A stretch of DNA of 52,687 nt from Candidatus Dojkabacteria bacterium (GCA_030950485.1 JAUZRK010000018.1:1-52687); one strand, 5' to 3'; positions 5,000-25,535 are shown, counted from the first letter of the stretch. Translations and numbers: made by a program. The notes: generated by a model from the letters alone, not told the origin.

Positions 5000-5042
5000 A
5001 TTTTTTATTATATAGAGATTTTTAGGGAGTGTCATCTTACAA

Positions 5043-5092
5043 GGTGACTGGATGTAAAGCAGAGTGTAAAGTTGTACAACCCTGCATCGGTG
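5043..5092 (+). repeat. Partial family-1 repeat (variant middle module), copy D'
   Basis: ggtgactggatgtaaagcagagtgtaaagttgtacaaccc is near-identical to the interior of copy E (9702-9738, gttgactggatgtaaagcagagtgtgaagttaaacaccc). Confidence 0.7.
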
Positions 5093-5103
5093 GTATATAA
5101 AAT

Positions 5104-5203
5104 CGCAGCGTAGAGGTCGCAGATCTGCGACCATGGGGCCTGGATAACAAGCACATGGTTTTAAGATTATACATCCAGGACGAATGTTGCACCCTACGCT
5201 GAG
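5104..5203 (+). repeat. GC-rich structured intergenic repeat (family 1), copy D (diverged)
   Basis: cagcgtagaggtcgcagatctgcgaccatgg ... cctggat/atccagg hairpin ... ccctacgctg. Same outer stem and first hairpin as copies C and E. Sits between the divergent ATPase and uvrB genes. Confidence 0.7.
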
Positions 5204-5243
5204 ATCTTTCGGGTTTTGGGAGAGAATGAGTTATAATCTATTT

Positions 5244-6479
5244 ATGGATTTTAAACTACACTCGAAATACAAACCTTCTGGAGATCAGCCGCAAGCAATT
5301 GATCTAATATCTAAAGGGATAGAAGCAGGTATTGAACATCAAACAGTCGTTGGAGCTACAGGAACTGGAAAAACTTTTACAGTCGCTAATATTATAGAGA
5401 AATTTAATAGACCGACAATAATAATCTCCCACAATAAAACTCTAGCAGCTCAACTTTTTTCTGAGTTTACTGAGTTCTTTCCAGAAAATGAAGTAGCTTA
5501 TTTTGTAAGTTATTACGATTACTATCAGCCTGAAGCTTACGTTCCCAGCAGAGACTTATATATTGAAAAAGATTCTGATATAAATGAAACAATAGAAAAA
5601 TATAGAAATACAGCAACCCAAGCGCTACTTTCTAGAAGAGATGTAATCATTGTAGCCTCTGTAAGTTGTATATACGGTCTTGGAAATCCAAGCGATTATA
5701 TTGAGCTTAGTTTAAAACTTAAAGTTGGAGATATTGTAAATAGAGATAAGCTTTCCCATAAGCTAATAGATATGCAATATGAACGAAGAATACATGATTT
5801 CCCAAATGGAAGTTATAGAGTTAGAGGAGAAATTATTGATATAAATTTAACTACTGCAAATGATGAAGCAGTAAGATTAGAATTTTTTGGCGAAGAAATT
5901 GAAGCGATAAAACTAATTAATCCAATTAGTGGGGAACTAATACAGCGTGTACCTGAAATATTGATTTTCCCAGCGAAACACTACGCTACTCCCCAGGAAA
6001 AATTAAAAGGAGCTATTGAGGAAATAAGAACTGATTTAGAAAAAGAAGTTAAAGCTTTTAGTGATAAAGGGCAAGATATGGAAGCCAATAGGCTTAGACA
6101 GAGGGTGAACTTTGATTTAGAAATGTTACAGGAAACTGGTTTTACAAAAGGTATTGAAAACTATTCAAGATATTTTGATAAAAGACCTCCAGGTTCATCA
6201 GGATCTTGTTTATTAGATTATTTTCCGGATGATTATCTAATGTTTATTGACGAGTCTCATATTACAGTTCCACAAGTTGGAGGTATGTATAGCGGAGATA
6301 GGGCTAGAAAGCAAAATCTTGTTGACTACGGTTTTCGATTAAAGGCAGCTATGGATAATAGACCTCTAAAGTTTGAAGAATTCCAAAAAAGAATTAATCA
6401 GGCAGTTTATTTGTCCGCAACTCCAAAAGAATACGAACTAGAAATTAGTAAGAAATCTACAAAAAAAGCACTCTCTTAG
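5244..6479 (+). pseudogene. uvrB: Excinuclease ABC subunit B, 3'-truncated (N-terminal two thirds only)
   Basis: KPSGDQPQAI, Walker A GATGTGKTF, YYDYYQPEAY, and DESH (FIDESHITVPQ) through LSATPKEYELE. It then ends at a TAG after about 411 aa from the 5244 start. Helicase domain 2 (motifs IV-VI) and the UvrC-binding C-terminus are absent. The next ORF is unrelated. Confidence 0.85.
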
Positions 6480-11107: not shown

Positions 11108-13696
11108 TTATTTATTAATTTGTAATTTAAGTTCTTTCTCACTACTAAGTAGTATATCAACAATTTTATGAATTACTATAAAGCCTAAGACGAATAAAAT
11201 GTCTACTAAGAAAATGATCCAATAATATTTTATATCGAAAGGATCAGTTTGATAATAAGACCTGCTTGGAAAAATCAGTGCTAATACTACTAGTAGAGCC
11301 GGTATTAATACTGTAAATCTTTCAAACTTCCCTTCTAATTGGAGTTTCTTTAACCAAATATAGATAAAAATCGCCGTTACTATAGGCAATACAAATAAGA
11401 ATATAGCCATTTTAGGCTTATCTAAATATAGGTAGAATGGCATTGTACCTTGAAAGTATCCAAATATAGTTCCGAAGAAAAATAATGCAACCATGCTAAC
11501 TTTACTAGTAAGCTTCTTTGAATAATATGAAATACCGAAAGAGTAAATTAATGTCAGTGTTAGAAGTACATTTATTAGAAAAGTACTCTGTTCACCATAT
11601 GAAATTCCTTCAGTCTTTATTAAAATATAAGCTAAAAGCGATAGTAGACCCATTAGTATTCCACTAAGCCCTCCCGATAAGATTGTTTCTGAAACATAGT
11701 TTCTTTGATCAGTTACATTTTGTCTAGAAAATGAAATCGAATAACTTGGGAAAGTCGTACCGATAAAACTAAATAAAAGAACGGAGGTTGGATGAATGGG
11801 TAAAATTTCACCTTGAGCTGAAAAGAATGCTACTAAGACTAACATTAATATAGCTCTAGAAAAATAGATCATCGTATTTAATTTCAAATTAAATACAAGA
11901 TTATCTCCTTCGTAAAAAATTTCAGGAATTTTCTTATAATCATTATCAAGTAATACAATATCAGAAACATCTTTTGCAATTCTTGCACCGCTTTGCATCG
12001 AAATACTAACAGTTGCTGATTTCATTCCTAATACATCATTTATCCCGTCCCCAACCATAGCTACTCTCTTTCCTGGCTTTTTAATACTTTCTACAATAGC
12101 GTATTTATCTTCAGGAGTTGCTCTTGTGAATATTGTAGTGCCTGAATTAACTAAATCTTGTATTGAGCTATTATTCTCTAATAGATCAACAGCGTTAGAA
12201 GTATCAATGCCGACCTCTCTTGATATTTTTTCAACAGAAGCTAAGCTATCTCCAGATATAACTTTTATTTCTATTCCTTGCGAATAAAGTTGTTTGATTA
12301 CTTTTTTTATTCCAGGGTTTAATTTTTCTTTTATTCCAAATACTGCGACTTTTTCTGATTTAGCCTTTGTCTCAAATCCTTCTTTTAGACGATTGAATTC
12401 ATCTTCTTTATCAAACATTACAGCGATCAAAACTCTAAGCCCTTTTTTCTCCAATTTTTTAACTTCTTTAACAACTTCTGAACTATAAATTGATTCATCT
12501 ACTGATTTAACTAATCTAGAACCTGCTCCAATAACTACAGTTTTGTCTACTTTTTCACCAATATAAAAGGCACTGAATTTATTCTTCGAAGTAAATGGAA
12601 TTTGTTTTATATCATCTTCAGTTATATCTTCTAAATTCTCATAATTTATAAAAAATTCCTCAAGCGATTCACTAGTTTTATTACGACCCTGAATGTAACT
12701 GCTAACAGCTTTATATAGCTTACCAAGTTCATTTAAATCTAAATTAAAAGTCGTAGCATTTTCTACGGTCATTTTATTTGTAGTTATAGTACCTGTTTTA
12801 TCTATACATAAAACATCAACTCCTGCTAAATCGTCTACTGCTCCTCTCTTTTGAATTAAAACCCCTCTGTTAGATAGTTTAGTAATTGAAATTACAAAAC
12901 TTAAAGATATTAAAAATATTAATGTTTGGGGTATTACAACAGTAACAATTGCAGTTACACTTTTTAGAATTTCCGGATTAGAATATCCTGAGTCTTTTGT
13001 AAGAAAATAATGGATTAATGCGCTTAAAATACTTGTAGTAACAAAGAATACTATGAATTTCTCTCCTAAGCTTTCTAATTTACTTTTATTCTTTTTATAA
13101 CTAGTACTTTGTTCTCCAAGTTGGTTTAAATAATTATCTTTACCGACTTTATCAACTTGATATACTACCTCTCCAGTAATTATATAACTTCCAGATAAGA
13201 CATTATCACCTAAACCTCTTTCTATATAATGAGACTCTCCAGTTAAAGCTGATTCATCAAGTTGAAGGTATTTAGAATAAATTATTTTTCCATCAGTAAT
13301 AATTCCGTCACCTTCAGAGCCTAAAATATAATCACCTTTTACTATTTCATCAACAGAAATTTCTTCTACTTCATTATCTCGTATTACTCTGGCTGTTTTT
13401 TTAAATTCTTCAAGAAGTGACTCAAGTCTTCGCTTAATTCGAATTTCTTCATTCGAGTTTATTACTGCAGTTAAGACTATATATATACCAAAAATTGAAG
13501 TTTCAGCATAAAGTTTAAAGTACCCTAAAAGTAAAACTAAAGGGATTAAAACAATATTAACCGGACTTAAAATATTTCTCTTTATAATTGTTAGGTAAGT
13601 CGCTGAGTAACTATCTATTCTTTTATTACTTAAGCCTATCGATTTTCGTCTTGAGGCTTCTTCCCTAGATAATCCTTTTATATCGTTAAACTTCAT
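11108..13696 (-). CDS. P-type cation-transporting ATPase (divergent subtype)
   Basis: TGES (LTGESHYIE), DKTGTITTNKM, VISGDSLASV and GDGINDVLGM. The TM4 motif is IPQTL instead of PEGL. 862 aa with an extended hydrophobic C-terminus. Confidence 0.88.
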   Translation of the reverse strand: MKFNDIKGLSREEASRRKSIGLSNKRIDSYSATYLTIIKRNILSPVNIVLIPLVLLLGYFKLYAETSIFGIYIVLTAVINSNEEIRIKRRLESLLEEFKKTARVIRDNEVEEISVDEIVKGDYILGSEGDGIITDGKIIYSKYLQLDESALTGESHYIERGLGDNVLSGSYIITGEVVYQVDKVGKDNYLNQLGEQSTSYKKNKSKLESLGEKFIVFFVTTSILSALIHYFLTKDSGYSNPEILKSVTAIVTVVIPQTLIFLISLSFVISITKLSNRGVLIQKRGAVDDLAGVDVLCIDKTGTITTNKMTVENATTFNLDLNELGKLYKAVSSYIQGRNKTSESLEEFFINYENLEDITEDDIKQIPFTSKNKFSAFYIGEKVDKTVVIGAGSRLVKSVDESIYSSEVVKEVKKLEKKGLRVLIAVMFDKEDEFNRLKEGFETKAKSEKVAVFGIKEKLNPGIKKVIKQLYSQGIEIKVISGDSLASVEKISREVGIDTSNAVDLLENNSSIQDLVNSGTTIFTRATPEDKYAIVESIKKPGKRVAMVGDGINDVLGMKSATVSISMQSGARIAKDVSDIVLLDNDYKKIPEIFYEGDNLVFNLKLNTMIYFSRAILMLVLVAFFSAQGEILPIHPTSVLLFSFIGTTFPSYSISFSRQNVTDQRNYVSETILSGGLSGILMGLLSLLAYILIKTEGISYGEQSTFLINVLLTLTLIYSFGISYYSKKLTSKVSMVALFFFGTIFGYFQGTMPFYLYLDKPKMAIFLFVLPIVTAIFIYIWLKKLQLEGKFERFTVLIPALLVVLALIFPSRSYYQTDPFDIKYYWIIFLVDILFVLGFIVIHKIVDILLSSEKELKLQINK

Positions 13697-13758: not shown

Positions 13759-14574
13759 TTAGTCACCTCTGTTTTGCCAATTAGTATAATTATCCAGTGC
13801 AACCATAGCACAGCTTAATTCATCATCTCTAGTAACAGTTACATAGTCGATAGTTACATTAAGATCTGCCTGGTTACCAGTAACTACTGTATAAACAAGT
13901 TTAGGTCCAAATAAAGTCACATCAATTACGACATTAGCAGCTCCTTCAGCAGCTTCTTCTCCAAGATTTACAACAATTTTTTGACAACCTTCATTTGTGA
14001 TTGATTCTCCTGCAGTTTCTATAAGAAAGCTAGCAGCTCCGATAGGATCTTCTCTAATCTCATTTACTACGGACATTAATGAAGCCATAAACATTAAAGG
14101 AATTAAGCACGAAGCTACACTTAATCCTAATATTAATTTCTTTTGTTTAATCGCTATTTGAGCTGCAGTTATTGGTATTCTTAATTGAGGTATTGCTTTA
14201 AGGAAATTTAATATTTCGGGATGTTGCAATATTAGCTTTATAGCTTTTACTTTATTTATTGGATTCGAGCTTAAAAGTAGGGGTAGTGCTTCTGTTATAA
14301 CCTTTAGCTGAGAAGGGTCCATTTTTTCGACTCCTGCAGCTTTAAATCCTGCTTGTATTGCACTTTGGGGTATAACTCCACCTAGCTTACTACTTAATAC
14401 TTTAGATAGTTCGGCTGTTTGGTCTACTTCCTCTGAAGCTTGTGCCTGGCTAAGTGCTTGTACTAGCGCTCTGTTTGAATTTACCCAGTTAAAGTATTGC
14501 TGCTCTGGGGTAAGTCTTTGCACTCTTGTTCTTGGTGCTGGTTTTGCGTAATTTCTAGGTGCTGCTGCGTCCAT
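13759..14574 (-). CDS. Hypothetical protein with one central TM segment (last gene of the envelope block)
   Basis: 271 aa with an ATG start. Ala/Gln-rich N-terminus, hydrophobic segment LILGLSVASCLIPLMFMASLMSVV, and a C-terminal beta-rich region. No recognised motif. Confidence 0.5.
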   Translation of the reverse strand: MDAAAPRNYAKPAPRTRVQRLTPEQQYFNWVNSNRALVQALSQAQASEEVDQTAELSKVLSSKLGGVIPQSAIQAGFKAAGVEKMDPSQLKVITEALPLLLSSNPINKVKAIKLILQHPEILNFLKAIPQLRIPITAAQIAIKQKKLILGLSVASCLIPLMFMASLMSVVNEIREDPIGAASFLIETAGESITNEGCQKIVVNLGEEAAEGAANVVIDVTLFGPKLVYTVVTGNQADLNVTIDYVTVTRDDELSCAMVALDNYTNWQNRGD

Positions 14575-14613
14575 ATTTACATGATAATACTTTGGGAGAT
14601 GGAAGACAATTTA

Positions 14614-14829
14614 TTAGATGATTCCTAGCTTTTTCTTTATTTTTTCGATAGTATCATTTATCGCTCTAGTATCTCTATTAATATCTTGTCTATTAAATGT
14701 CTTAGAGATTTGTTGTAACCTATCTAGGGCACGCCTTAGAATATTTCTATTTCCGCTATCTACTTCAACCATTGACGTTATTTGTTCTGCTTGGTTGACT
14801 AGAAAATACTGATTGCTCCTGCATTTCAT
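14614..14829 (-). CDS. Arg/Asn/Asp-rich segment, probably the displaced C-terminus of the giant charged protein
   Basis: 71 aa with the same composition as 15344..18130. It overlaps, in a shifted frame, the end of the start-less open frame 14768-15115. Ends in a tandem TAA TAA. Confidence 0.4.
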   Translation of the reverse strand: MKCRSNQYFLVNQAEQITSMVEVDSGNRNILRRALDRLQQISKTFNRQDINRDTRAINDTIEKIKKKLGII

Positions 14830-15115
14830 TTAAAGCTAATTCATGGTCTAAAGGCTCCCCTAATAATGGAGCTTCTTGACCTTGTAAATTTAATCTCCTT
14901 CTATTTTCAGAGAGAATATCGTCTTGTAGTTGTCGTAATCTTTTCTCACCTAATCTTGTGCCTCGAGAATCGTTGTCTCTAGTATTTCTGACTGAATTTA
15001 TTCTGTCCCTAATATCTCCTAATTGACGTATTGTGGCTCCTCGAATAATATCATTTCTTAACTGATTTAATTCATTAATATATCTTTCATTTTGATTAGC
15101 TCTGTCTTCAATATT

Positions 15116-15337
15116 TTAAAGCTGTTCTGCACCAAATCTATCACGCTCTAGCCCGTATTGTTCTCTCATATTATTTCTAGCTTCTCTTAACTCTCTCAAT
15201 CTCGGATCGTCAGCTCTGATTTGTAGATCTATGCTAGTATCAGCATTCTCTCCATTAACTAAATTTTCGCCATTACCTAATTGTCTTGCGTAAAGAGTAT
15301 CTGCTTCTGCTTTCACTTCTTCTATTTCTTGAAACAT
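15116..15337 (-). CDS. Charged segment in frame with the giant protein (between two in-frame TAA codons)
   Basis: The ATG lies 2 codons after the TAA at 15344-15346, in the same frame. The sequence (..DDPRLRELREARNNMREQYGLERDRFGAEQL) resembles the upstream protein. Confidence 0.45.
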   Translation of the reverse strand: MFQEIEEVKAEADTLYARQLGNGENLVNGENADTSIDLQIRADDPRLRELREARNNMREQYGLERDRFGAEQL

Positions 15338-15343
15338 TCTCTC

Positions 15344-18130
15344 TTATTCAGCAAGCTCCTTCTCTCTATTTCTAATGTTGGCGATAAGATCCATTATTAC
15401 CTGAGCTTCGGCATCTGGTCTTTGCTCTAATTGAGTAATTATTCTTTTTAAAGACCTTCTTTGTTGGGCTATCTGTTCTCTTTCTCTATTCATTAAATTT
15501 ATATTGTCTTCAGATGTACCTGCTGCTGGATTTGTTCCAATCATTTCTCTAGATCTATTTATTCTATCTAGTAATGCAGCTGCAGACCTCTGATATCCTT
15601 CATTACCAATCCATCTAGGATTATTTTCATTGATTCTTCTGAAGTTTTCTCTCTCTATTCTAAGTATCAACTCTCTTTCTGCCTCCATTTCCTGATTATA
15701 TTGGTTTTCCCACCTTCTCTCTCTCTTATTAAGTTCATATCCATCTTCTCTATCTTTAACGGCAGGGAATTTAGCTTGAGCGTTTTCTCTTCTTGTTCTT
15801 ACCCTTTCATATAAGTTGACTAAATCATCTGTAGTTTCAACCACTGCGTTAATATCTAGCCCCATATAATTTTGAATAGCTTGTCTATAAACTGAATTAT
15901 CTATAGCTTTCTCTTTAAGGCTTTGATTCCTCTCTCTCAACGCTCTAATATCATCGTCCTCTTTAACTGTAATTTCATTTTGATTAAATTTCATAAGTAC
16001 TGCTCTTAATCTTACTTCATATTCGCTAAGTCTTTGCTCATTTCTTTTGATGACTCTTCCTTCACCTTCTAGTTCAAGCATAGCTAACTCGTCATCCTCA
16101 ATTCTCGTAGCTTTATTATTAGCCATATCTATATTAAGATAGGCTTGGTTTAAATTATTGACAACTTCATATCTCTCGTCTATTGTAAGTCTTACATTAT
16201 TCAGATCTCCTATAAGTTCTTGAATTATATTAGCTTCTCTATCTCTTCTCCTTAACAATCTCCATACAACTCCTTTCGCAGCTTCTGCTCTATCAGCTAA
16301 AGTATTTATCATTTCTCTAGTTCTTACTCGAATTGGATTTCCTATTGGAATATTATCGTCTGTCTCCTCAATAAAGTTTTCTGCTAGTGTGTCTTGTCCT
16401 TGATCAAGTATTTTAATATCGTCAATTACCTGTCTCTGTTCTTCGGGTGCTCCTGCCATTACTGCAGTAGTATATTCCCTCTTTCGTTCTACCTGATCTC
16501 CTTTTCTATAAGTGTAGATTCTATTATAATCTTCTCTAGTTAAGGCTTCACCTGCTAATATGATGCATTGGTTTGCTTTATCCCTTATCCTGGCCCACCG
16601 CCTTATATGATTTTGAATTGTTTTATCTTCTGAATCTGCAGCTAATTCCTCAAGATTTCTTTTAGCTGCTGGAAGCCTTTTGTCTCTCGCCTCGTCTCTT
16701 GCAGCTTTCATTTCCTCTGCTTCAGCTTCGTCTATTCTTTTATTTACATCTCTCTCATTAAGATTGTTAGCTGTTTGGTTGAATCGCTCGTTTGCAGTTG
16801 CTCTTCTTTCTAAGCTTATTCTTCTCGGCGTCAGCCCTGGAGAGTCTTCTGTATCATTTAATCTATTTCTACCTTGCTCATCATTTAAAAATCTTTCTGA
16901 TCTCTCCGTATTTGCTAGCACTGCTTCAGCGTCTCTAACATTATCAATAAATTCTGCTCCATTTTCTTCTGTCGTATCCCAGTATCTAGGATTATTCTCA
17001 TCTAAATCATTAAAACCTCTTTCTTCAGTAATCTCATCTCGTCTTGTTCTTCTATAATCTCTAACATGAGGTTCATTTAGTTCTAAAATTTCGAGACTTC
17101 GTCCATAAACTTCGTTCTGAATTTCTATCTCCTCGAAAACAACAATAGGAACGCTCCTTCCAGCGTTCACTTCTTCAGTTAAAGCTACTCTTTTCTGTTG
17201 ATTATTCTCAATTTTTTTTCTTATACCCTTAGCTGCTTCTGCCCTCCCTTTAACTGTGTCTCTTTCAGCAATTTTGGCTGCTTTTTGATAGGGAGCTAAT
17301 TCATTTCTAGCTGCTTGAAGCAATCTAAGATTACCAGCTGCGTCTCTTAAATTCTTTATTCTTTCTTCTTGACCAATTGGAATATTATTATCATCCATAG
17401 TTCTAGCTGCCTTTATCTGATCTATTTGAATTTCTAATGCATTTCCATAAACATTAGCTACATCAAACAATCTGCCGACAATGTCATCTCTAGTTTCAAT
17501 AGCCTCGACTAACATTGTAAACTTAGGATGATCCGTATCCATATAGTCCCCATCTTCAACAATAGCCTCTGTCATATTTTGTAGACTGGCAAGATCATTA
17601 AATACCTTTGCTAATTGGTTTAAACCAACATCAGCATAGTCTACAATATCGTTCGGATTATCTACATCTAGCTTTGCATTTTTCCCAAGCTGGAATATTT
17701 TTATTAGTTCTTCTATTTTTTTTCCTGAGGATAACTCAAAGCTCTTAAATCTAGTAGCAAATTCCTTCGGAGATAAAAGCAAAATCTGATCTAAGACAGC
17801 AGCTTCTGGAGTTTTTCGTTTAGCGCCAGCTCTATTAATTCTTCTAAACCTCTCAGGACTTAGTATAGAAGTTTCTCGTCTTGCATCTCTAATTTCTTTT
17901 CCATGTTCCAGCTGAAGATGTTTCTCCCATAATCTTCGTTCGTTTTTAGACATAGCATCCCCTACTATTTGAAGTTGTATATGTCGGTTAGCATTAGGCT
18001 GCAATGAAGGCTTTTCAAACCTTGTACTTAGTGGATCTCCTGTTTCTTTTATTATTAACTGCTTTTCTTGAGCCTCTGCCTCTAATGCTGCTGCTATTTG
18101 AGTATCCATTGTGGTTGCTGTATCAGCCAT
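15344..18130 (-). CDS. Giant hyper-charged Arg/Glu/Asn/Asp-rich repeat protein, function unknown
   Basis: 928 aa with no TM segment. Internal repeats: DDNIPIGQEERIKNLRDAAGN vs DDNIPIGNPIRVRTREMINTLAD, and ENNPRYWDTTEENG vs ENNPRWIGNEGYQ. Long predicted helical and coiled stretches. Confidence 0.7.
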   Translation of the reverse strand: MADTATTMDTQIAAALEAEAQEKQLIIKETGDPLSTRFEKPSLQPNANRHIQLQIVGDAMSKNERRLWEKHLQLEHGKEIRDARRETSILSPERFRRINRAGAKRKTPEAAVLDQILLLSPKEFATRFKSFELSSGKKIEELIKIFQLGKNAKLDVDNPNDIVDYADVGLNQLAKVFNDLASLQNMTEAIVEDGDYMDTDHPKFTMLVEAIETRDDIVGRLFDVANVYGNALEIQIDQIKAARTMDDNNIPIGQEERIKNLRDAAGNLRLLQAARNELAPYQKAAKIAERDTVKGRAEAAKGIRKKIENNQQKRVALTEEVNAGRSVPIVVFEEIEIQNEVYGRSLEILELNEPHVRDYRRTRRDEITEERGFNDLDENNPRYWDTTEENGAEFIDNVRDAEAVLANTERSERFLNDEQGRNRLNDTEDSPGLTPRRISLERRATANERFNQTANNLNERDVNKRIDEAEAEEMKAARDEARDKRLPAAKRNLEELAADSEDKTIQNHIRRWARIRDKANQCIILAGEALTREDYNRIYTYRKGDQVERKREYTTAVMAGAPEEQRQVIDDIKILDQGQDTLAENFIEETDDNIPIGNPIRVRTREMINTLADRAEAAKGVVWRLLRRRDREANIIQELIGDLNNVRLTIDERYEVVNNLNQAYLNIDMANNKATRIEDDELAMLELEGEGRVIKRNEQRLSEYEVRLRAVLMKFNQNEITVKEDDDIRALRERNQSLKEKAIDNSVYRQAIQNYMGLDINAVVETTDDLVNLYERVRTRRENAQAKFPAVKDREDGYELNKRERRWENQYNQEMEAERELILRIERENFRRINENNPRWIGNEGYQRSAAALLDRINRSREMIGTNPAAGTSEDNINLMNREREQIAQQRRSLKRIITQLEQRPDAEAQVIMDLIANIRNREKELAE

Positions 18131-18278
18131 ATCTTAATTATTTTAATTCCATTATATATGAATTAGAGAGAAGTTTGTTTGTGTTTTGTTGAATAGAATT
18201 TTAGAGCGTTTCTTATGCTTTGTCTTTTCTTATCTGAGTTAAGTCATTCCACCCTAAGTTAGGTAGAATGACTTTTTT

Positions 18279-18767
18279 TCAGAAAATGAGCATAGTCAGT
18301 AAAACTAACTTTGCCCAAGTTGACAAGACGGCAATTAATGCCCATACCATCATCCACCTCCTAATTCGAGGATGATAGTTAAACAGAAAACGACCTCCAG
18401 GGTCGGTTCCTATTCTGTGGCGTTGCCACCTGTTTAGCTCGCTCCAGGTTGCCTCCCTAGGGAAGACCCTGAATCGGCTAACTGTCTGTAACGACAGTAA
18501 ATCAACTAGACTTATAAGTGCTAAAAGTAGCCACTTATTTTCTATGATTTCTAAGAAGTTTAATGTATCAACTTCTTTATTTAAGTAAAACAGAGCTATT
18601 GGAAAAATTATTATTCCAAGTGTAGATCCAATAAATACGCAAAACATCCAGCTGTTAAGGATGAATTCGCTGACTCCAAACAGACCGATTATCAGAAAAA
18701 CGAAACTTAGAATTGAGATACCTAAAATAACTAAACTCAACTTCTTATTCCTTTCAATAGTAAACAA
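18279..18767 (-). CDS. Small membrane protein with a GC-rich Arg/Trp-rich internal segment
   Basis: 162 aa (TTG start) with TM helices at both ends. The central approx 18340-18500 is far more GC-rich than its surroundings and encodes RFRVFPREATWSELNRWQRHRIGTDPGGRFLFNYHPRIRRW. Confidence 0.5.
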   Translation of the reverse strand: MFTIERNKKLSLVILGISILSFVFLIIGLFGVSEFILNSWMFCVFIGSTLGIIIFPIALFYLNKEVDTLNFLEIIENKWLLLALISLVDLLSLQTVSRFRVFPREATWSELNRWQRHRIGTDPGGRFLFNYHPRIRRWMMVWALIAVLSTWAKLVLLTMLIF

Positions 18768-18972
18768 AATCGAGAAATTTAACTGACTAAGACTTAATCA
18801 TCTAAATTTCCCGATCTTGTTTGACTAATCAAAAGAAAGACAAACTTCTCTCTTTTCAAAGTGCTAGCTTATCGCTAAGCTTAAGATATACCTTATAGTA
18901 AATAAATACATATATTAGGCATATACTAATTATAGCAGAATAAGGTGCTTTTGTCACTGATTAATAGTGACG

Positions 18973-21855
18973 TTATACTTGTGTGATAAGAGATATAGTT
19001 AGAGGATTAACTTTAGATTGATCACCATTTGATACTACTCCACCTATTTTGAATACTAGCGGTCGACTGTTTGCTGGAGCAGCTGCTGGTGATAAGATTG
19101 GAGGAGCATCAGTGAATAGAAACTTCTGAGCTGTTGTACTATATCTTCCCATTAAACCAACAACATCATTCCAATTATTGGCTCTAAATACAAGATCTAC
19201 TTTAATAGCAAAACTTTGCCCATTTACAGTAGGATAAGGATCTTGAGGTGTAGGGTCAGCTCCAGTCATACCTCTATTAGCTACAAGTAAATGTACTGAT
19301 GGACTAGAAGTTCTTGGATCTAATGTTCCAACTGCATTTACATTCTGAGGGTTAACACCTCCTGATGCAAAGTCAAATGCTTGTCCTGTACCCGGTGGAT
19401 TTATGTTTGTAGGAATACCTGGGTATAACTCAATTTCTGAATTAATACCTGCATATGGCCCCCCAAATCCATTTGCAGTTCTTCTAAATACTGTAGCTGC
19501 ATTGTTAGTACCTCTACTTTTAGCTTCTGCTATAACAATGTCATTTTTACTTACAACTGATCCGAATGAATAATTCTCAGCTGTAAATGAAACTTTAAAC
19601 CCTTTAAGAAGTACTTCATTAGTAGCCATAGATCTAAGAGGCATAGCCCCACCAACGAAATCATCGGGGATTGCTCCAAATTGTCCTAGAATACCTAATA
19701 GATTATCTTGCGTTAAAGTAATAGTTCCTCCGCTAACACCTGGACCTTTGAATTCTACTTTTAGAGCTCGTGGTTTATCTGGATCTTGCGATCTAGAGTT
19801 AGTACCCTCTCCTCCTAAGTTAGACTCGGCAGCATTTACTACTCCAAGTAGTAAATTACCAGCAGTTCTTGCAGTTAATCTAGATACAGCTGCCCTCGCG
19901 TCACCTAAAACTGTTCCATCTCCCTGTGACTCTTTTGCTGCTCCAACAAACTGTCTAATCCCCCCCATTTGTTTTCTATATGCATTTGATAAGATTCCAT
20001 CTGCTCCATTTAATTTTCTACCAGTAAAGGCAACTGACGTACTATTAGCAAGTCCCCCTGCCTTATTAATACCTTGTTTTCCATAATCGATACTCTGCTT
20101 CGCTAAATTAACACTATCCTTCGCAGAATTAAATGCATTAGTAAAGAATTTCGGTACTTTTATCTGAGTACCTAATTCATCATCAATCTGCTGCAAAGTA
20201 ACTGGAATATTAAGATAAATAGCAACAGCCATAATAGCCATCATAAACCCATTAACACCAGCAAAAACATCATCCGAATAACCAGCAATTACACCTAACC
20301 CACTCATAGGAGGAATATAAACTGTACCCGCAGAAGCAGGAATAGCAGCGGCGAAAGATTCATTTGAAAGAATTATTGCTAGTAGGAATAATAAATAGGT
20401 TGTTATATAAATAATACTAGCAGACCACATCATCTTTAAGAAATCCATTATAGCCTTTGTACCATTACCAGGTACTGCTACCGTAGCCATAAAAAACGGC
20501 GAAAATATTGGGAAAATTACAAAGATAATATATTTTTCAATTAGCTTCTTGAATATTCTAAATGAAGTTATAAAGAGTAGTATTGTTATTAAGAAATTTA
20601 TAATTTGTGCAAACCAGAATGATACTACTTCTGAATCACTTGCACCAGTTCCAGCTGAAGTGCCTCCAAATCCACCAAAGAAATCAATAACTCTAGCTAA
20701 GATAACAAATACTGAAAACTGTAAAAATCCACTTAATGGTCCTCCATTAGTACTTATATTAGTAAGCGAATCATCCAAAGTTCCAGCTATGTTGACTTGG
20801 AATGCTGAATTGTACCAAACTAATCTGTCGTCATTAGCATATAAGCCTCTATCAATAGGATTTCCTGTAGAATCCTTAGGCACTTTACCCTTACAATTTT
20901 CAGCTCCTCCTGAATTTAGCTCAGCTACTGTAGCATCATTACTACGTAGAAAATAAATACTTTTATCACTTCGTTCCACGAATTTAGTCTCCAAATACCT
21001 AGTTTCAGCCTTACTACAATTTCTGAGATCATAAACTACTCTAGCAGGAGATCCATTTCCTACGAGAAATTCATGCGCAATATCAGTACCTGCTGTAACA
21101 ATATCAATAAAAACCGCAGAAATAGGATAACTTAAAGGGACTAGTATCATTGCCAGTGCAATATTTGGAATAGCACTTTGGATAGTAACTGAAGCTCCAC
21201 CGCTAAGTCTCGCTCTAAACATAATTGCGAAAGCAACTCCTACAATAAGGAAAATTAAAATTCCATAAACTACATTAACCGACCATCCCCAGAAAGCTTG
21301 AATAGGTTTAAGTAAAGAATAACCAGTACCTGGATAATATACACTTGGATCGTTTTGAGCATTTACACTTCCAAAATTACTTAACGCATAGACTTGTTGT
21401 TCAACATAGCTTCTTGAACTAGCAGGTCTTTGTTCTAGCAATTCAATTGTTAGATTTTGCATAGAAAGCACAAGTCCTCTATTTTGTGATTCTGGAAGAG
21501 TTCCATTTAAATATCCATATATATAGTTAACCGCTTTTGGGTCAGTAGCTAGTAGTTCAATATTACCGCAATCTTCAGGTGCTAAATCAGAATTTTGATT
21601 TGCCCCTTTAATTCCATCAATAAAATTAATAAATCCACCTTCACTAATTGATGACATAAAATCAGGTACTATACCAACGGCTTCTGATGAACGACAGTTC
21701 TCAAGTGTTGCTGAAACTTCAGGGTTAGTAAAATCCAGAAGAAAGCTTCTTCCAATTGATTTAGCAGATGTACTAGACAAAAAGAAAAACCCTATTACTG
21801 ATATAAAAACCAGTAGTAGCAAAGCTAATATTTTAACTCTTTTCCCTTTATACAT
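18973..21855 (-). CDS. 960-aa polytopic envelope protein (VirB6/TrbL-like topology, inferred)
   Basis: N-terminal signal/anchor MYKGKRVKILALLLLVFISVIGFFFL. An extracytoplasmic domain of about 170 aa. Two blocks of multiple TM helices (about aa 190-260 and 370-560). A Gly/Asn/Pro-rich soluble C-terminal region of about 400 aa. Confidence 0.7.
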   Translation of the reverse strand: MYKGKRVKILALLLLVFISVIGFFFLSSTSAKSIGRSFLLDFTNPEVSATLENCRSSEAVGIVPDFMSSISEGGFINFIDGIKGANQNSDLAPEDCGNIELLATDPKAVNYIYGYLNGTLPESQNRGLVLSMQNLTIELLEQRPASSRSYVEQQVYALSNFGSVNAQNDPSVYYPGTGYSLLKPIQAFWGWSVNVVYGILIFLIVGVAFAIMFRARLSGGASVTIQSAIPNIALAMILVPLSYPISAVFIDIVTAGTDIAHEFLVGNGSPARVVYDLRNCSKAETRYLETKFVERSDKSIYFLRSNDATVAELNSGGAENCKGKVPKDSTGNPIDRGLYANDDRLVWYNSAFQVNIAGTLDDSLTNISTNGGPLSGFLQFSVFVILARVIDFFGGFGGTSAGTGASDSEVVSFWFAQIINFLITILLFITSFRIFKKLIEKYIIFVIFPIFSPFFMATVAVPGNGTKAIMDFLKMMWSASIIYITTYLLFLLAIILSNESFAAAIPASAGTVYIPPMSGLGVIAGYSDDVFAGVNGFMMAIMAVAIYLNIPVTLQQIDDELGTQIKVPKFFTNAFNSAKDSVNLAKQSIDYGKQGINKAGGLANSTSVAFTGRKLNGADGILSNAYRKQMGGIRQFVGAAKESQGDGTVLGDARAAVSRLTARTAGNLLLGVVNAAESNLGGEGTNSRSQDPDKPRALKVEFKGPGVSGGTITLTQDNLLGILGQFGAIPDDFVGGAMPLRSMATNEVLLKGFKVSFTAENYSFGSVVSKNDIVIAEAKSRGTNNAATVFRRTANGFGGPYAGINSEIELYPGIPTNINPPGTGQAFDFASGGVNPQNVNAVGTLDPRTSSPSVHLLVANRGMTGADPTPQDPYPTVNGQSFAIKVDLVFRANNWNDVVGLMGRYSTTAQKFLFTDAPPILSPAAAPANSRPLVFKIGGVVSNGDQSKVNPLTISLITQV

Positions 21856-21910
21856 CTTTCTAGAAAGTATTTATAACTCAGTATAAGGAAAAAATTGGGA
21901 GATGACAATT

Positions 21911-21977
21911 AAAACGCAAAAGTAAAAATAGAAAGGCAAAAGTTCAAAGTCCAAAGGCAAAAAATAAAGCAAAACTA
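21911..21977. repeat. 7-nt-periodic A-rich intergenic tract
   Basis: acgcaaaag taaaaat agaaagg caaaagt tcaaagt ccaaagg caaaaaa taaagca: words of the form nnnAAAG recur every 7 nt. Confidence 0.6.
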
Positions 21978-22110
21978 AGTGCAGTATCGAGTGTTTTTCG
22001 AGAGGAGCGAGAAAAATGTATCGAGATGCGGGGAACGATAGAAGTAAAAACTAAAAACACATAGCACATTAATTAGGCTAATCACTAATCCCTTTACCCT
22101 ACGCCCTATT

Positions 22111-23286
22111 CTAAAGTCTTTTTATAGCGTCAACAAAGAAAGTGAAATTGGCTAATCCACCATTTTCTAACCTGGCTACTCCTTTAAAAACATAAATTGG
22201 ATATGTATAACCTGCCCAATCTTCTGGCTCCCAGTAAGCAAGCTCAGTTCTTGTAGCATCAACTCTAAATTCAGTTACAGCAACATTCGTGCTTAGATTC
22301 GCAAAATAATCTGTATTACTATCCTGGAAATATACTAAACTTCCATTACCTCTTTGTAAATTAGTTAATGCTTCATCTGGAGTAACTACTTCATATAAAG
22401 CAGGAGTACTATAATCAAAATCAACAAAATCAATTGAAAAAACATCACTTGGGTAATTTTTAAGTTGGTTGGAAACGATTAGATTTACCTGCCCCTCTCT
22501 TGGATCTGTAGAATATACCTTTCCAACTGTGTTTTCAGGGACTGTTTCTCTATAAGCTTCTGGTATTTCCTCTCTAACCCTTACTATCGATTGAGGTAAT
22601 TTTCTAAAAATACTAATGAATACAAAATCTGCTTCATTTACGGTTTCTGCTTCAAAAAAGATACCGTCTAAACCTAATACAGAATATCTAATTTCAGCTT
22701 GCCCACTAGATAGGCCTAATCCTGTAAATCCTAGTGAATTGAGCAATTCTTTTGCTTCAGACGCGTAGTAAGTTATATCACTAGATATTGATTTAAGACC
22801 AAGAGCTGCTGCGTTTTCATACCAATCTGTAGTCATCTCCCATTTTCTAGTCGAAGTATTAAAAGTAATTTGTTTTGTAGAGTTATCTTTTCCCCAAAGA
22901 TATTCTGTTGCTGGAATTAATTCAGTAAAATTATCAGGACTAAAGCCTAATATACTAATTGTATCTCTAGCGTTATCGAAAGTATCAAGTTTCTCTCTTG
23001 GTTTTTCTACTGCATAAACATACGCGGTATCTGGAAAAGCCAAGTGAAAATTTTGTCTTATAATAGGAGTAGACTTATTATATTGTAGACTAGGTATTTG
23101 GGGCACGCTAATTTCTCCATAAAGTCTATCTGCTGGTACCCAGTAAGAAAATTTTTCTTCTGCTACCGGTAATGCTTTTTCATTATAGCTACTCAATGTT
23201 TGGAAAATCATTAAGATAACTATTAATACAAGCAAAAAGACGAAAATCTTTCTGTTTCTATTTGTTTGATCGTATAAAGATGCCAA
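22111..23286 (-). CDS. Bitopic exported protein, function unknown
   Basis: 391 aa, TTG start, N-terminal anchor KIFVFLLVLIVILMIF, then a large mixed alpha/beta extracytoplasmic region. Co-oriented with the block. Confidence 0.6.
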   Translation of the reverse strand: MASLYDQTNRNRKIFVFLLVLIVILMIFQTLSSYNEKALPVAEEKFSYWVPADRLYGEISVPQIPSLQYNKSTPIIRQNFHLAFPDTAYVYAVEKPREKLDTFDNARDTISILGFSPDNFTELIPATEYLWGKDNSTKQITFNTSTRKWEMTTDWYENAAALGLKSISSDITYYASEAKELLNSLGFTGLGLSSGQAEIRYSVLGLDGIFFEAETVNEADFVFISIFRKLPQSIVRVREEIPEAYRETVPENTVGKVYSTDPREGQVNLIVSNQLKNYPSDVFSIDFVDFDYSTPALYEVVTPDEALTNLQRGNGSLVYFQDSNTDYFANLSTNVAVTEFRVDATRTELAYWEPEDWAGYTYPIYVFKGVARLENGGLANFTFFVDAIKRL

Positions 23287-23365
23287 GTTTTAATCGTAAC
23301 TTTATATATAATAGAGTAAAAAGTCGAAAGTTTAAAGATAACTATAACCTACAACCTAAAAACTA

Positions 23366-23866
23366 CTAAATACTTCCATCAGGAATAACATCAAGAACAT
23401 TAATACCAATAATTCTAAGTATAACCACACTGAAAACAAGTACAGCAAGTCCTGCTAAAGTCGCAAAGAATTTCTCTCTAGCCTCAACAATTTTAGCTTC
23501 TTGTCCTGATTGATACATTAATCCAGCTAAAATAAGTTGAATAAGAGCAACACCACCCATAACTCCAAAAGCAATTCTAATCATTCCAGTTACAAGACCC
23601 AGAGGTGTTACATCTAGACAACCAATAACAATCCAAATACCTCCTTGAATTATACAATTATTACAAAGCAAAAACTCTTGCTCTCCTGCTGCATCAAAAG
23701 CATTATTAGCTTTGCAAAGATCATATTTAGTACGGTCAACAAGCTCTGTACAACAACCATCATTAATATCCCCGGCAGCTTGTGGAGCTTGTATATTAGG
23801 CTGATTACCTCCACCGACTGGTTGATTTAAAACTACAAGATCTAAATTTCTTTGACCAATTATATT
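23366..23866 (-). CDS. Cys-rich VirB2/TrbC-like two-helix (pilin-like) domain, open in frame from the upstream gene's TAA
   Basis: DGCCTELVDRTKYDLCKANNAFDAAGEQEFLLCNNCIIQGGIW, then two hydrophobic helices (IRIAFGVMGGVALIQLILAGLMY / FFATLAGLAVLVFSVVILRIIG) separated by the polar loop QSGQEAKIVEAREK. The first start codon (TTG, 23671) falls after most of the Cys-rich region. The frame is open back to the TAA at 23867-23869. Ends TAG TAG. Confidence 0.55.
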   Translation of the reverse strand, partial: NIIGQRNLDLVVLNQPVGGGNQPNIQAPQAAGDINDGCCTELVDRTKYDLCKANNAFDAAGEQEFLLCNNCIIQGGIWIVIGCLDVTPLGLVTGMIRIAFGVMGGVALIQLILAGLMYQSGQEAKIVEAREKFFATLAGLAVLVFSVVILRIIGINVLDVIPDGSI

Positions 23867-24587
23867 TTATGTAGATCTATCGTAGGCTGCAATTGTTACA
23901 GTAGCCTCATCACTTATAAAACTATATGTTGCTGTAAAAGTCCCATCTGCATTTACGTCTACTATATCAAGATCGTTAAATGGGGCAACAAACATTCCTG
24001 AAATGGGATCTATTAGTCCAAATCTAATAACGTTTTGAAAAAGGCACCCTGAAATTGATACAATATAGCTGTTCTGGGCTGTAACTGTTGCGGCTCCAAA
24101 ACTTATTGTACTATTTCCTTGACAATTATCATTTACAGTAGCTGCATCTACTAAAGTAATTGTATTTTCACAAGTTTCCCTACTTCGATTAGTAGCTATA
24201 ATATTTACAGCTGAAAAGTCTACTACAGAAAATGGACTTGAATTACTAATTTCTATATTTAAGAAATCAAGCTGCTGCGCTAGAGGTATATTAACTTGAT
24301 TATTAATATCAAGATAATTTTCTAATGGTATTGGGCTTTTATTATTATCAAAATCTTCTTCATAATATTCTACTGCTGGATTAAATGGAGCGCTTAATGA
24401 TAAGGGTAATGTTAATCCATTCCCTCTTCTTACTAATTCAGCAGTAAACACTATTGGTGAACCTGCTGGTGTAATTGAACCCTCTGTTACATTAATTGAA
24501 AAAGAATTTGTTTGCGCATCTACTAAATACGAAAAATAGCGAATTAGTAATAACAATAGTTATTAAAAATATTATCTTAGACTTCAT
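23867..24587 (-). CDS. Secreted beta-rich protein; the signal peptide is in a different frame (frameshift at an A5/T5 run)
   Basis: The ATG at 24587 encodes MKSKIIFLITIVITNSLFF.., which stops after 31 codons. The main 229-aa frame begins ..YLVDAQTNSFSINV. Removing one T from the run at 24532-24536 joins them into a canonical signal peptide with a VDA/Q cleavage site. Confidence 0.6.
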
Positions 24588-24686
24588 CTTATATCTATTA
24601 ATATGTTTCTCTTAAACTATTCTATATTATTAATAATCACATTGCTAACCCATTGAAAGCTTAAAGATAAATATCTTGATTTGAAA

Positions 24687-25535
24687 TTACTGCCCATTTC
24701 GTGGAGCTGCATTTGGATTATTGTGAGGTAATCTTTTTAACTGAGGCATCTGTATTTGTTTAGGTATAGGTACATTAACGAAGTTATTATGTACTTGAGG
24801 AACTTGTTGATTTTGCAGAGGTTGTCCCGTTGGAATATTTACATTGATTGTTTGATGTATAGGTTGAACAGGTGCGCTTGGTAACTGATGTGAATTCATA
24901 GGTTGGATTGAAGGATATTGTCTTTGAACAACATTCACTCTTCTCTTTTTTTCTTCATTTTTATTACTTCTTTCAATAAGACTTTTAATAAATGAATCAG
25001 AAGTTATATCAAAAATTACTACAAGTATTAGAACTATTACTGTAGATAAATAGATTCTATCTTCTAAGAATGTTAAATTAGTAATATTTCTAGTCCATTG
25101 AGTTAAATTTATAATTAATTTTGAAAAGCTGTTTTGGTCGCTACTTACTAAAAATAGATTAAGAACTAAACGTATAAATATAACTCCTTCTACTATTTTA
25201 AAGAAAGTATCAATTACGTTTAATATTATCGTCGATGCTTTGTCATAAAGAAACGCAGTAACTATTTCTGATATTAAAATTCCTCCAATAACTATAAATA
25301 CTAAAGCTGCTAAGGCATCAGCATTTAAATCCTGAAAGTCGGATCCTTCGTCAATAACAAAAATGCCTTTAAAAGGTGTGATAAAAATGTCTGAGATTAC
25401 ATTTATAAGATTTACAAGAAAGTTTTCATCATTTGCATTAAATGTGTCAAGTGTAACTCGTAGAAATAGAAATACAGCTATAAAGCCAGCTATAGCTAAA
25501 ATGATTCCTCTAACTCTAATTCTAAAATCTCTCAT
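24687..25535 (-). CDS. YggT-like integral membrane protein (two YGGT-like repeats) with a Gln/Pro-rich tail
   Basis: FLFLRVTLDTFNANDENFLVNLINVISDIFITPFKGIF and VIFIRLVLNLFLVSSDQNSF resemble the YggT repeat. The C-terminal 90 or so aa are low-complexity Q/P/N-rich. Confidence 0.5.
   Translation of the reverse strand: MRDFRIRVRGIILAIAGFIAVFLFLRVTLDTFNANDENFLVNLINVISDIFITPFKGIFVIDEGSDFQDLNADALAALVFIVIGGILISEIVTAFLYDKASTIILNVIDTFFKIVEGVIFIRLVLNLFLVSSDQNSFSKLIINLTQWTRNITNLTFLEDRIYLSTVIVLILVVIFDITSDSFIKSLIERSNKNEEKKRRVNVVQRQYPSIQPMNSHQLPSAPVQPIHQTINVNIPTGQPLQNQQVPQVHNNFVNVPIPKQIQMPQLKRLPHNNPNAAPRNGQ

Follow-up and report, generated by a model that had tools for sequence, protein, structure and literature searches.

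In a deep-branching member of the Candidatus Dojkabacteria (CPR/Patescibacteria), two genes of a 12-kb minus-strand block encode membrane-channel-like and pilin-type proteins of the known CPR/Patescibacteria type IV secretion system (T4SS), located away from its motor ATPase. Of the other genes of the block, one encodes a YggT housekeeping-type membrane protein and one a YycI-like anchored protein; the rest are orphans that are not conserved. The block is therefore a known machine in an unusual layout and not a new one. We put at about 60% the probability that the conserved core of the block belongs to the Patescibacteria T4SS as an outlying module peculiar to Dojkabacteria, rather than being a self-contained new apparatus.

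The window, i.e. the whole stretch of 52,687 nucleotides that was analysed, holds 7-10 consecutive minus-strand ORFs, flanked by uvrC and a P-type ATPase gene and separated by gaps of 39-255 bp, in agreement with the co-oriented run of 8-10 closely spaced genes described in a sequence-only reading of this DNA. Most members had been said to lack a nameable motif, and indeed no Pfam or NCBIfam family passed its threshold for any block protein (the score of the 282-aa protein lies below the YGGT cut-off). The features are as follows:

25606-27300: uvrC, one flank of the block
24687-25535, minus strand: A282, a 282-aa YggT-family membrane protein with ~5 transmembrane (TM) helices and a Q/P-rich C-terminal tail
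23366-24587, minus strand: B, a disrupted gene for a secreted protein, as read from sequence and translations
ATG at 24587: start of the signal-peptide ORF of B, MKSKIIFLITIVITNSLFFVFS, in a frame different from that of the 229-aa ORF
24532-24536: T5 run, at or near which the frameshift of B lies
23867-24556 with stop (domain 23870-24556), minus strand: 229-aa ORF of B, a variable beta-rich domain
23867-23869: in-frame TAA stop of B
23366-23866: 166 codons of B after the TAA in the same frame, a Cys-containing linker followed by a two-helix hydrophobic hairpin
~23366-23671: C-terminal VirB2-like T4SS_pilin hairpin of B
22111-23286, minus strand: C391, a 391-aa bitopic protein with one N-terminal TM helix
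18973-21855, minus strand: D960, a 960-aa polytopic membrane protein with an N-terminal anchor and ~7 further TM helices
18279-18767, minus strand: E162, a 162-aa orphan with ~5 TM helices and no family match
14614-18130, minus strand: F, a gene in four pieces for a TM-less charged protein (36% D/E/K/R)
15344-18130, minus strand: first piece of F, 928 aa, no TM helix
remainder of F: TAA at 15344-15346, 73 aa, TAA at 15116-15118, ~116 codons, a frame change at ~14767-14829 and 71 aa
13759-14574, minus strand: G271, a 271-aa orphan with a single TM helix and no family match
11108-13696: P-type ATPase gene, the other flank of the block

Among the components that mark a Patescibacteria T4SS, the window contains a VirB2-like pilin (PF18895 or PF04956) and the polytopic component of virB4 loci. 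VirB4, PrgI/VirB3-like, TrsD/TraC-like and VirD4-type coupling (T4CP) genes are absent from it according to tblastn with Patescibacteria T4SS proteins and to Pfam on the scanned ORFs, which included all ORFs >300 aa. The earlier statement that no VirB4/VirD4 ATPase is encoded here is thereby upheld, and the absence of these genes counts against a T4SS module. The scanned ORFs of the window include no relaxase, the exclusion of relaxases and peptidoglycan hydrolases being not exhaustive for small ORFs.

Polytopic and pilin-domain proteins

In D960, an N-terminal anchor and an outer region with cysteines precede the membrane core, which is conserved (~residues 140-600); the tail varies and is beta-rich from ~residue 690 onwards. 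The signal anchor and multi-TM, VirB6/TrbL-like topology ascribed to D960 from the sequence was recovered. No Pfam or NCBIfam family matched D960, and its full-length family is confined to the Dojkabacteria. The core aligned over 306 columns with its homologue P0109, a protein from a virB4 locus (hhalign 99.2%, E 2.7e-19). In standard Patescibacteria T4SS loci the counterpart is a polytopic protein of ~550 aa, and D960 as tblastn query matched 79 of 80 standard-type metagenome loci. VirB4 is encoded 4-9 kb downstream of the D960 homologue, together with PrgI-like and TraC-like genes, in 23/23 loci, namely those of the 80 that have at least 8 kb of downstream flank. In the loci that encode the homologues P0109, P0047 and P0046, a T4SS_pilin array is followed by a gene for a large protein, the D960 homologue, PrgI-like and TraC-like genes and VirB4 (DUF87/AAA_10/P-loop_TraG); these loci adjoin dnaN, L036 also dnaA. 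The homology to a protein of virB4-containing loci supports D960 as a T4SS-type component.

As no gene of loci L033, L034 and L036 matches TrbL/VirB6 in the Pfam hits recorded for these three, and as the D960 homologue of L033 has ~10 hydrophobic segments, the most of all proteins tested, the D960 family fills the VirB6 position in the Patescibacteria T4SS. Sequence homology of D960 to VirB6/TrbL was not detectable, which counts against the module: the TrbL profile (PF04610) matched neither D960 nor any of 44 family members or 51 distant members, and hhalign against VirB6 of pTiC58 and four alphaproteobacterial VirB6 proteins gave nothing (probability <1%). The AlphaFold2 model of D960 (mean pLDDT 63.6; membrane helices 80-95) points weakly to VirB6. 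Foldseek placed TrwI/VirB6 of R388 at the top, below significance (E 0.13, probability 0.69, target TM-score 0.35), and TrwI chains took ranks 1, 2 and 23 (E 0.13-1.4, probability 0.14-0.69, target TM-score 0.27-0.36).

In relatives, a single ORF of 251-667 aa encodes B; its N-terminal part varies, and its C-terminal part is conserved. PF18895 (T4SS_pilin) was matched by seven of nine aligned B sequences, the window copy and eight from relatives (best E 2e-7), and one full-length orthologue reached 27.2 bits with a cut-off of 26.6. The window copy itself stays below the reporting threshold for PF18895 and is 44-55% identical to the matching copies. The B family profile also matched the first pilin of a standard pilin array (E 1e-15). 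Judged by these sequence comparisons, the C-terminal domain of B is T4SS_pilin/VirB2-like, and the description of B as a secreted beta-rich protein with a VirB2-like two-helix domain stands. Every in-frame lesion stop in the block is TAA. A recoded genetic code as their source was rejected, because TAA, TAG and TGA all serve as stops in the window (28, 15 and 4 ORFs, respectively).

Partner and neighbouring genes

C391 has homologues (n=26) of which all named ones are from Dojkabacteria. Its AlphaFold2 model (pLDDT 89.5, pTM 0.81) shows one N-terminal TM helix and an extracytoplasmic multi-domain fold, in line with the bitopic exported protein proposed from the sequence. The predicted fold is YycH/YycI-like: Foldseek returned 5coz (E 1.3e-7), the uncharacterised protein EUBREC_2869, and YycI (2o3o; E 1.5e-4, probability 1.00). 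A VirB8-like assignment was considered and dropped, no such match being recovered. In relatives (L001, L004, L015, L024, L027), the stop of C391 abuts or overlaps the start of B, and C391 is the partner gene of B. Standard T4SS loci contain no homologue of C391, and neither the scanned ORFs of the window nor the related loci yielded a histidine kinase.

In at least 16 genomes of Dojkabacteria, D960, C391, B and A282 are no more than ~12 kb apart, with 30-45% protein identity. Across relatives the neighbourhood is kept; gene order and orientation are not. Housekeeping genes (alaS, uvrC and the P-type ATPase gene) are part of the conserved neighbourhood too, and some of the synteny may therefore reflect general collinearity instead of functional linkage. 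A T4CP adjoins the D960 homologue in three relatives (L023, L026, L030; TrwB_AAD_bind 32-34 bits, cut-off 20.5, plus TraG-D_C). In the 29 related loci, tblastn with L033 proteins recovered no VirB4, PrgI-like or TraC-like gene closer than 10 kb to D960, which likewise counts against the module.

For A282, the window copy scored 18.3 bits with YGGT (PF02325; cut-off 27), and four of five orthologues passed this cut-off at 29.2-36.8 bits with two repeats each, bearing out a YggT-like membrane protein with a Q/P tail. It adjoins the D960 homologue and uvrC in eight relatives. A282, an ordinary YggT-family protein, is a conserved neighbour that probably has no part in secretion.

The small membrane protein (162 aa, ~5 TM) and the 271-aa single-TM protein of the sequence-only reading are both present, and the giant charged repeat protein is charged but not repetitive, since F showed no internal repeat in a BLAST self-comparison. 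The composition of F is alike on both sides of its stops. E162, F, G271 and the beta-rich domain of B had no homologue in 29 related genome loci and >80 T4SS loci, which speaks against the idea that the 8-10 genes form a single unit, and hhalign of the orphans against PrgI/VirB3-like and TraC-like families gave nothing at or above 30% probability. In standard loci, TM-less proteins of 600-950 aa with 28-30% charged residues adjoin the D960 homologue; F resembles these neighbours by position only. E162 and G271 are only putative members of the module. The lack of any counterpart to C391 or the orphans in standard T4SS loci counts against the module reading.

Proposed role of the module and alternative readings

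According to our proposal, which goes beyond the homologies, gene contexts and folds that were shown, D960 would be the counterpart of VirB6, a polytopic platform or channel in the cytoplasmic membrane. B would be exported by Sec via its signal peptide and stay anchored by its VirB2-like hairpin, which the machine may then pull from the membrane and stack into a pilus- or stalk-like polymer, with the variable N-terminal domain outside as a host-contact surface. C391, membrane-anchored and translationally coupled to B in relatives, probably would act as an outer-face chaperone or scaffold for B. VirB4 would supply the energy, joined by a coupling ATPase in genomes that have one, and both would be encoded at other sites of the genome; we infer that the module cooperates with such a distant VirB4. 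A282, E162, F and G271 are regarded as neighbours without a demonstrated role. The proposal is supported by the homology of the D960 core to P0109, the VirB4 linkage in the standard loci, the VirB6 position of the D960 family and, weakly, the Foldseek ranking, PF18895 in B, the T4CP of three relatives, the conserved neighbourhood and the record of VirB4 for two Dojkabacteria assemblies in a published survey; the twofold disruption of B in this genome counts against it.

The stop and frameshift lesions noted earlier in two genes were indeed seen, as a frameshift and a TAA in B and as two TAA stops and a frame change in F, and a third gene of the window, outside the block, is also broken (a DHH paralogue, 42310-43337). 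Together with the absence of the cl1, SBP and T4CP genes of relatives, this would fit a former T4SS module that is being lost, with B and F as pseudogenes and the intact genes on their way out or repurposed. We consider such a decaying remnant unlikely: D960, C391 and A282 are intact, and the window pilin domain gives no sign of drift, because all 35 columns invariant across the nine aligned sequences are retained. Moreover, F is without homologues, so that its pieces could be separate genes, and faulty assembly could account for the lesions. For a check of the lesions no near-identical genome was found; the proteins looked up were singletons or joined only by 47-aa fragments (90% identity). 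The broken B and fragmented F may thus reflect either partial decay of the module or errors of assembly.

It is improbable that D960, B and C391 form a T4SS-derived surface apparatus which displays pilin-anchored variable ectodomains without VirB4, the long tail of D960 and the YycI-like partner replacing lost parts. A coupling ATPase is found directly beside the D960 homologue in three relatives, the D960 of basal Dojkabacteria, encoded in this same neighbourhood, is short and consists of the core alone, and pilin polymerisation in known T4SS requires VirB4. Two Dojkabacteria assemblies are also marked VirB4-positive in Table S1 of 10.1101/2025.01.22.634366. What speaks for such an apparatus is that virB4 was never seen within 10 kb of D960 in the 29 related loci, that D960 exceeds the virB4-linked form by 250-400 aa, and that C391, cl1 and SBP are lineage-specific partners without counterpart in standard loci. 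The same low probability is given to a chance co-orientation of unrelated envelope genes in a collinear region, the T4SS-like members being independent of their neighbours. Variable order and orientation, four orphan products, an ordinary YggT protein, conserved housekeeping genes nearby and promoter and terminator scans without an operon signal could all be explained in this way, but not readily the linkage of D960 to the pilin domain, a distinct second T4SS-type component, across deep divergence, the end-to-end coupling of C391 and B in relatives, or the T4CP that joins the neighbourhood in three lineages.

Relation to known systems

Of the T4SS-like system that had been suggested from the sequence, the pilin domain and the 960-aa protein hold, whereas the new system, the single unit and a T4SS-type identity of the 282-aa and 391-aa proteins are not supported. 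Patescibacteria T4SS with VirB2-like pilins and VirB6-like proteins have been described (PMC10633639, PMC12102498, PMC12857230), which contradicts an undescribed system. Such a T4SS is essential in a cultured Saccharibacterium, and Southlakia epibionticum depends on it for epibiotic growth (Wang et al. 2023, PMC10633639). The clade, related to MPF-FATA, was surveyed by Quinonero-Coronel et al. 2025 (PMC12102498). The block shares with this T4SS a VirB2-like T4SS_pilin (PF18895) protein, a homologue of the polytopic protein whose gene follows the pilin array and precedes virB3/virB4, a monoderm host with a reduced genome and the lack of a relaxase among the ORFs scanned. It differs in the site of its two components, which are separated from virB4, prgI and the TraC-like gene and flanked by uvrC and a P-type ATPase gene, whereas the three comparison loci adjoin dnaN. 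It encodes a single pilin, extended at the N-terminus by a large variable domain, and no array of 97-172-aa pilins; its polytopic protein carries an additional tail of 250-400 residues, and the YycI-like partner gene is missing from standard loci.

In Bacillota, YycH and YycI regulate the histidine kinase WalK from outside the cytoplasm. C391 resembles YycH/YycI (2o3o) and EUBREC_2869 (5coz) in that repeated alpha/beta domains of the same fold come after a TM anchor at the N-terminus; sequence identity is 9-12%, and the C391 gene is coupled to a pilin-domain gene, not to walK.

Like VirB6/TrbL (PF04610; VirB6 of A. tumefaciens, TrwI of R388), D960 is a polytopic inner-membrane protein with at least five TM helices, and the short forms in standard loci are encoded, as VirB6 is, between pilin genes and virB3/virB4-type genes. 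The Dojkabacteria protein keeps this topology but not the gene position. It differs from VirB6/TrbL in that no sequence or profile similarity and no significant structural match were found, and in a length two to three times that of classical VirB6; with the "extended VirB6" proteins it shares a big added hydrophilic C-terminal domain. In the Rickettsiales vir homologue system, T4SS genes are scattered in islands and VirB6-like proteins are enlarged. That lineage is unrelated, and the host here is monoderm. As in the Rickettsiales, T4SS components appear to occupy several chromosomal sites, a split read in Dojkabacteria only from the lack of virB4 within 10 kb, and the protein in the VirB6 position is enlarged.

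Gene block and disrupted reading frames

The minus-strand run of ORFs, which are separated by 39-255 bp, is bounded by a P-type ATPase gene (11108-13696) on one side and by uvrC (25606-27300) on the other. None of its proteins scored above threshold against Pfam or NCBIfam, and promoter and terminator scans gave no signal as to operon structure, promoter-like sites being fewer than in shuffled sequence. The window as a whole (G+C ~31%) contains no tRNA gene and no Rfam match.

Genes of the block
24687-25535, minus strand: A282, 282 aa, ~5 TM segments, Q/P-rich tail
23366-24587, minus strand: B, pilin-type protein, disrupted gene
22111-23286, minus strand: C391, 391 aa, single N-terminal TM segment
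18973-21855, minus strand: D960, 960 aa, N-terminal anchor, ~7 more TM segments, beta-rich tail
18279-18767, minus strand: E162, 162 aa, ~5 TM segments
14614-18130, minus strand: F, 928 aa plus pieces, TM-less, 36% charged
13759-14574, minus strand: G271, 271 aa, one TM segment

The lesions that the sequence-only reading reported in two of these genes, B and F, are present in the sequence as frame changes and TAA stops. In B, the ORF encoding the signal peptide (ATG at 24587) is out of frame with a 229-aa beta-rich ORF, the shift lying at or near a T5 run (24532-24536), and an in-frame TAA (23867-23869) stands directly ahead of 166 codons ending in a two-helix hairpin. F contains TAA stops at 15344-15346 and 15116-15118 and changes frame between ~14767 and ~14829. 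This protein had been described as a giant charged repeat protein; its charged character (36%) is borne out, but no internal repeats were found. A reassigned stop codon (code 25 or 4) was ruled out as the cause of the in-frame stops: the genetic code is standard, because these stops are all TAA, while TGA, TAG and TAA each terminate ORFs of the window.

A third disrupted gene lies elsewhere on the minus strand, where ORFs 42855-43337 (160 aa) and 42310-42711 (133 aa) adjoin an intact DHH/DHHA1 gene (43327-44376, 349 aa). They align to residues 1-159 and 212-345 of the intact protein (39% identity) and are a tandem DHH/DHHA1 paralogue broken in two. The three broken genes point to either decay or assembly error. 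No near-identical genome for checking the lesions was found in the collection; at 90% identity, each block protein looked up was a singleton or was joined by 47-aa fragments only, and the exact sequence of E162 was absent.

The window also carries two P-type cation ATPase genes of the same BLAST cluster (2552-5134 and 11108-13696), less than 9 kb apart in a reduced genome. A UvrB-like ORF (5184-6479) encodes only 431 aa, with ResIII and the UvrB interaction domain and without the usual C-terminal helicase part. The same short form, at 411-414 aa, occurs in relatives (L122:1540-2775, L017:177-1418); uvrB seems to be truncated or split throughout the lineage, beside an intact uvrC.

The polytopic protein and standard secretion loci

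D960 belongs to a family that holds the VirB6 position in standard Patescibacteria type IV secretion system (T4SS) loci. This assignment concerns position and not homology to VirB6; it is based on the homology of the D960 core to a protein of these loci, on locus order, and on the lack of any TrbL/VirB6 Pfam match in the three loci concerned. The core aligned to a D homologue from one standard locus with 99.2% probability in a profile-profile comparison (E 2.7e-19, 306 columns). All three distant D homologues that could be placed on contigs (L033, L034, L036) lie inside textbook T4SS loci, none of whose genes gave a TrbL/VirB6 Pfam match.

Order of genes in the standard loci
1: T4SS_pilin array (L033, eight consecutive small genes, six with T4SS_pilin matches; L034, one pilin at the contig end; L036, no upstream room)
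2: large secreted protein (L033, L034)
3: D homologue, 532-637 aa (~10 hydrophobic segments in the L033 copy)
4: charged TM-less protein, convergent (L033:11650-14067, L034:6968-9817, L036:2103-3929)
5-7: PrgI/VirB3-like, TraC-like, VirB4 (DUF87, AAA_10, P-loop_TraG)
8: another large protein (dnaN nearby in L033 and L036, dnaA also in L036)

A metagenome scan with short D forms yielded 80 loci, 79 of which were matched by tblastn of D960. VirB4 was encoded 4-9 kb downstream of the D homologue, together with PrgI-like and TraC-like genes, in every locus having at least 8 kb of downstream flank (23/23). The charged protein beside the D-type gene in standard loci (600-950 aa, 28-30% charged) is in every case encoded convergently, evolves very fast and has no Pfam match. 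F and the charged neighbours of D960 in relatives occupy a similar position, with sequence similarity being undetectable.

An exhaustive HMMER search collected 2,817 cluster representatives of the D family at E <=1e-3 and 2,188 at E <=1e-10. At 50% identity the family comprises no fewer than 2,800 clusters, including a group of core-only proteins (500-600 aa), part of which come from WS6/Dojkabacteria. It has no Pfam model; no Pfam match was obtained for D960, nor for 44 members of the family and 51 remoter ones. The source names of the 46 homologues of D960 are limited to 'hypothetical protein' and Candidatus Dojkabacteria. One short member (P0108, UniRef100_A0A955L803) is named 'Type IV secretion system protein' in UniRef; its Pfam result consists of a sub-threshold 17-bit TrbC/VirB2 match on the first membrane hairpin. 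The idea taken from this match, that the corresponding hairpin of D960 is a pilin-like module, was dropped after hhalign against the pilin domain (probability 0.9%).

In the AlphaFold2 model of D960 (mean pLDDT 63.6), confidence is confined to the membrane helices. In the PDB the model comes closest to TrwI/VirB6 of R388, at a level short of significance (E 0.13, probability 0.69). In hhalign, the D core and the whole superfamily (120 rows) gave no signal against pTiC58 VirB6 or a four-sequence alphaproteobacterial VirB6 alignment.

The pilin-type protein and the neighbourhood in relatives

In relatives, B is a single ORF of 251-667 aa that encodes a signal peptide; its N-terminal part is variable, whereas its last 100 residues are strongly conserved (63% mean column identity). 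The disrupted copy of the window has kept every one of the 35 columns invariant among the nine aligned sequences. Pfam T4SS_pilin (PF18895) matches seven of these nine (best E 2e-7), its gathering score being exceeded by one full-length orthologue, and two B sequences also show weak contact with TrbC/VirB2. The B family profile matched the first gene of a standard pilin array with E 1e-15. One relative encodes two pilin-fusion genes in tandem (L027:18558-20981), with nearly identical pilin domains and unrelated N-terminal domains, a pattern resembling cassette-type variation of the exposed portion. ORFs of 158-163 aa following C391 in two loci (L037, L123) were considered as plain pilins and discarded, as they do not align to the pilin domain.

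The structural model of C391 (pLDDT 89.5) matched 5coz, an uncharacterised Eubacterium protein (E 1.3e-7), and YycI (2o3o, E 1.5e-4) in Foldseek; as modelled, C391 is a membrane-anchored YycH/YycI-fold protein. A VirB8-like identity found no support, no VirB8, TcpC or PrgL structure being among the best 50 Foldseek matches listed. Profile searches of the pilin domain, D960 and C391 against PDB sequences gave nothing. The orthologues of A282 belong to the YGGT family, above the Pfam cut-off.

Scanning one genome per species gave 29 D960 loci, with titles mostly Dojkabacteria or generic Patescibacteria-type. All ORFs of these loci were compared by BLAST and clustered. At least 16 genomes have homologues of D960, C391, A282 and the C-terminal portion of B (30-45% identity) in the vicinity of alaS, uvrC and the P-type ATPase gene. 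Conservation of gene order, proposed as a check of the block, was not observed: order and orientation vary between genomes and the neighbourhood alone recurs. In most relatives, D960 is divergent from its neighbours; next come between one and three charged proteins that are not conserved, then a divergent pair of cl1 and SBP_bac_1 genes, and finally C391 running straight into B. The compact all-minus arrangement is peculiar to the window, where cl1 and the SBP gene are missing.

The conserved cl1/SBP pair is divergent from the C391 gene in Dojkabacteria relatives (L001:15303-19644, L017:15816-19609, L037:13982-17306 and others). Cl1 (560-940 aa, 2-3 TM segments) has no Pfam match, and its partner is a solute-binding protein of ~500 aa, whose linkage to T4SS-type genes may bear on the idea of host-material uptake by these machines.

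No fetched locus contained a homologue of E162, F or G271, or of the beta-rich domain at the N terminus of B. Iterated HMM searches and hhalign of E162, F928, G271, the beta-rich domain, C391, cl1, SBP (cl4) and A282 against standard T4SS-locus components gave nothing at or above 30% probability, and no counterpart of C391 was found in the standard loci.

A probable outlying secretion module and known systems

The proposal of an undescribed trans-envelope or surface apparatus is not upheld: the block is best read as a known Patescibacteria T4SS in an unusual layout, with half of its genes unexplained. D960 and B would be an outlying module of this system as arranged in Dojkabacteria, to which C391 probably also belongs; A282 and the orphan genes are neighbours whose relevance to the module is undemonstrated. 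The absence of ATPases from the window was confirmed, as no VirB4, T4CP (VirD4-type coupling ATPase), PrgI-like or TraC-like gene was found. VirB4 was not detected within 10 kb of D960 in any Dojkabacteria locus, nor within that distance of C391 on two additional contigs. On this reading of the block, the ATPases serving the module would be encoded elsewhere in the genome; in the part of a survey's Table S1 available to us (10.1101/2025.01.22.634366), two Dojkabacteria assemblies are marked VirB4-positive.

By analogy with VirB6 and VirB2 of studied systems, D960 could act as a platform in the membrane, while VirB4 would drive extraction of B's pilin hairpin, which would then be stacked, leaving the variable ectodomain of B exposed for host contact. 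F-type and VirB2 pilins have N-termini that face outward in pilus structures; if B polymerises alike, the filament would be decorated with the variable N-terminal domain of B. A more far-reaching reading, to which we assign a probability of only about 0.3, is that the D family is the missing VirB6 equivalent of those Patescibacteria T4SS lineages for which VirB6 was reported to be scarce or absent, and that in Dojkabacteria it was split from virB4, grew by the addition of a variable tail and gained two partners, a pilin fused to hypervariable ectodomains and a YycI-fold protein. A conjugation-type machine would thereby have been remodelled into a host-contact pilus, each subunit carrying its own adhesin domain.

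For the window itself these results are mostly a clarification. [quoted passage not shown] Being large, unannotated and always present alongside virB4 in the T4SS loci examined, the D family offers annotators a definite candidate for the VirB6-type part that is missing. The arrangement in Dojkabacteria suggests that membrane platform and pilin can be inherited together, separately from the ATPase genes, and shows that a pilin can bear variable domains of large size, as would suit host recognition.

Patescibacteria T4SSs as such are already known (PMC10633639, PMC12102498, PMC12857230). As far as the available parts of these three papers go, they do not describe a constant polytopic partner of virB4 of the kind that the unannotated D family provides, the enlargement of this family in Dojkabacteria and its separation from virB4 there, pilins fused to large variable domains, or the YycI-fold partner.

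In three relatives, including the one with the D960 closest to that of the window, a T4CP gene directly adjoins the D960 homologue (L023:12340-14730, L030:6952-9318, L026:3230-5584). The encoded proteins have two N-terminal TM helices, TrwB_AAD_bind at 32-34 bits (cut-off 20.5), TraG-D_C and DUF87. These are Dojkabacteria-type genomes; for the T4SS cluster of the cultured Saccharibacterium no recognisable coupling protein has been reported.
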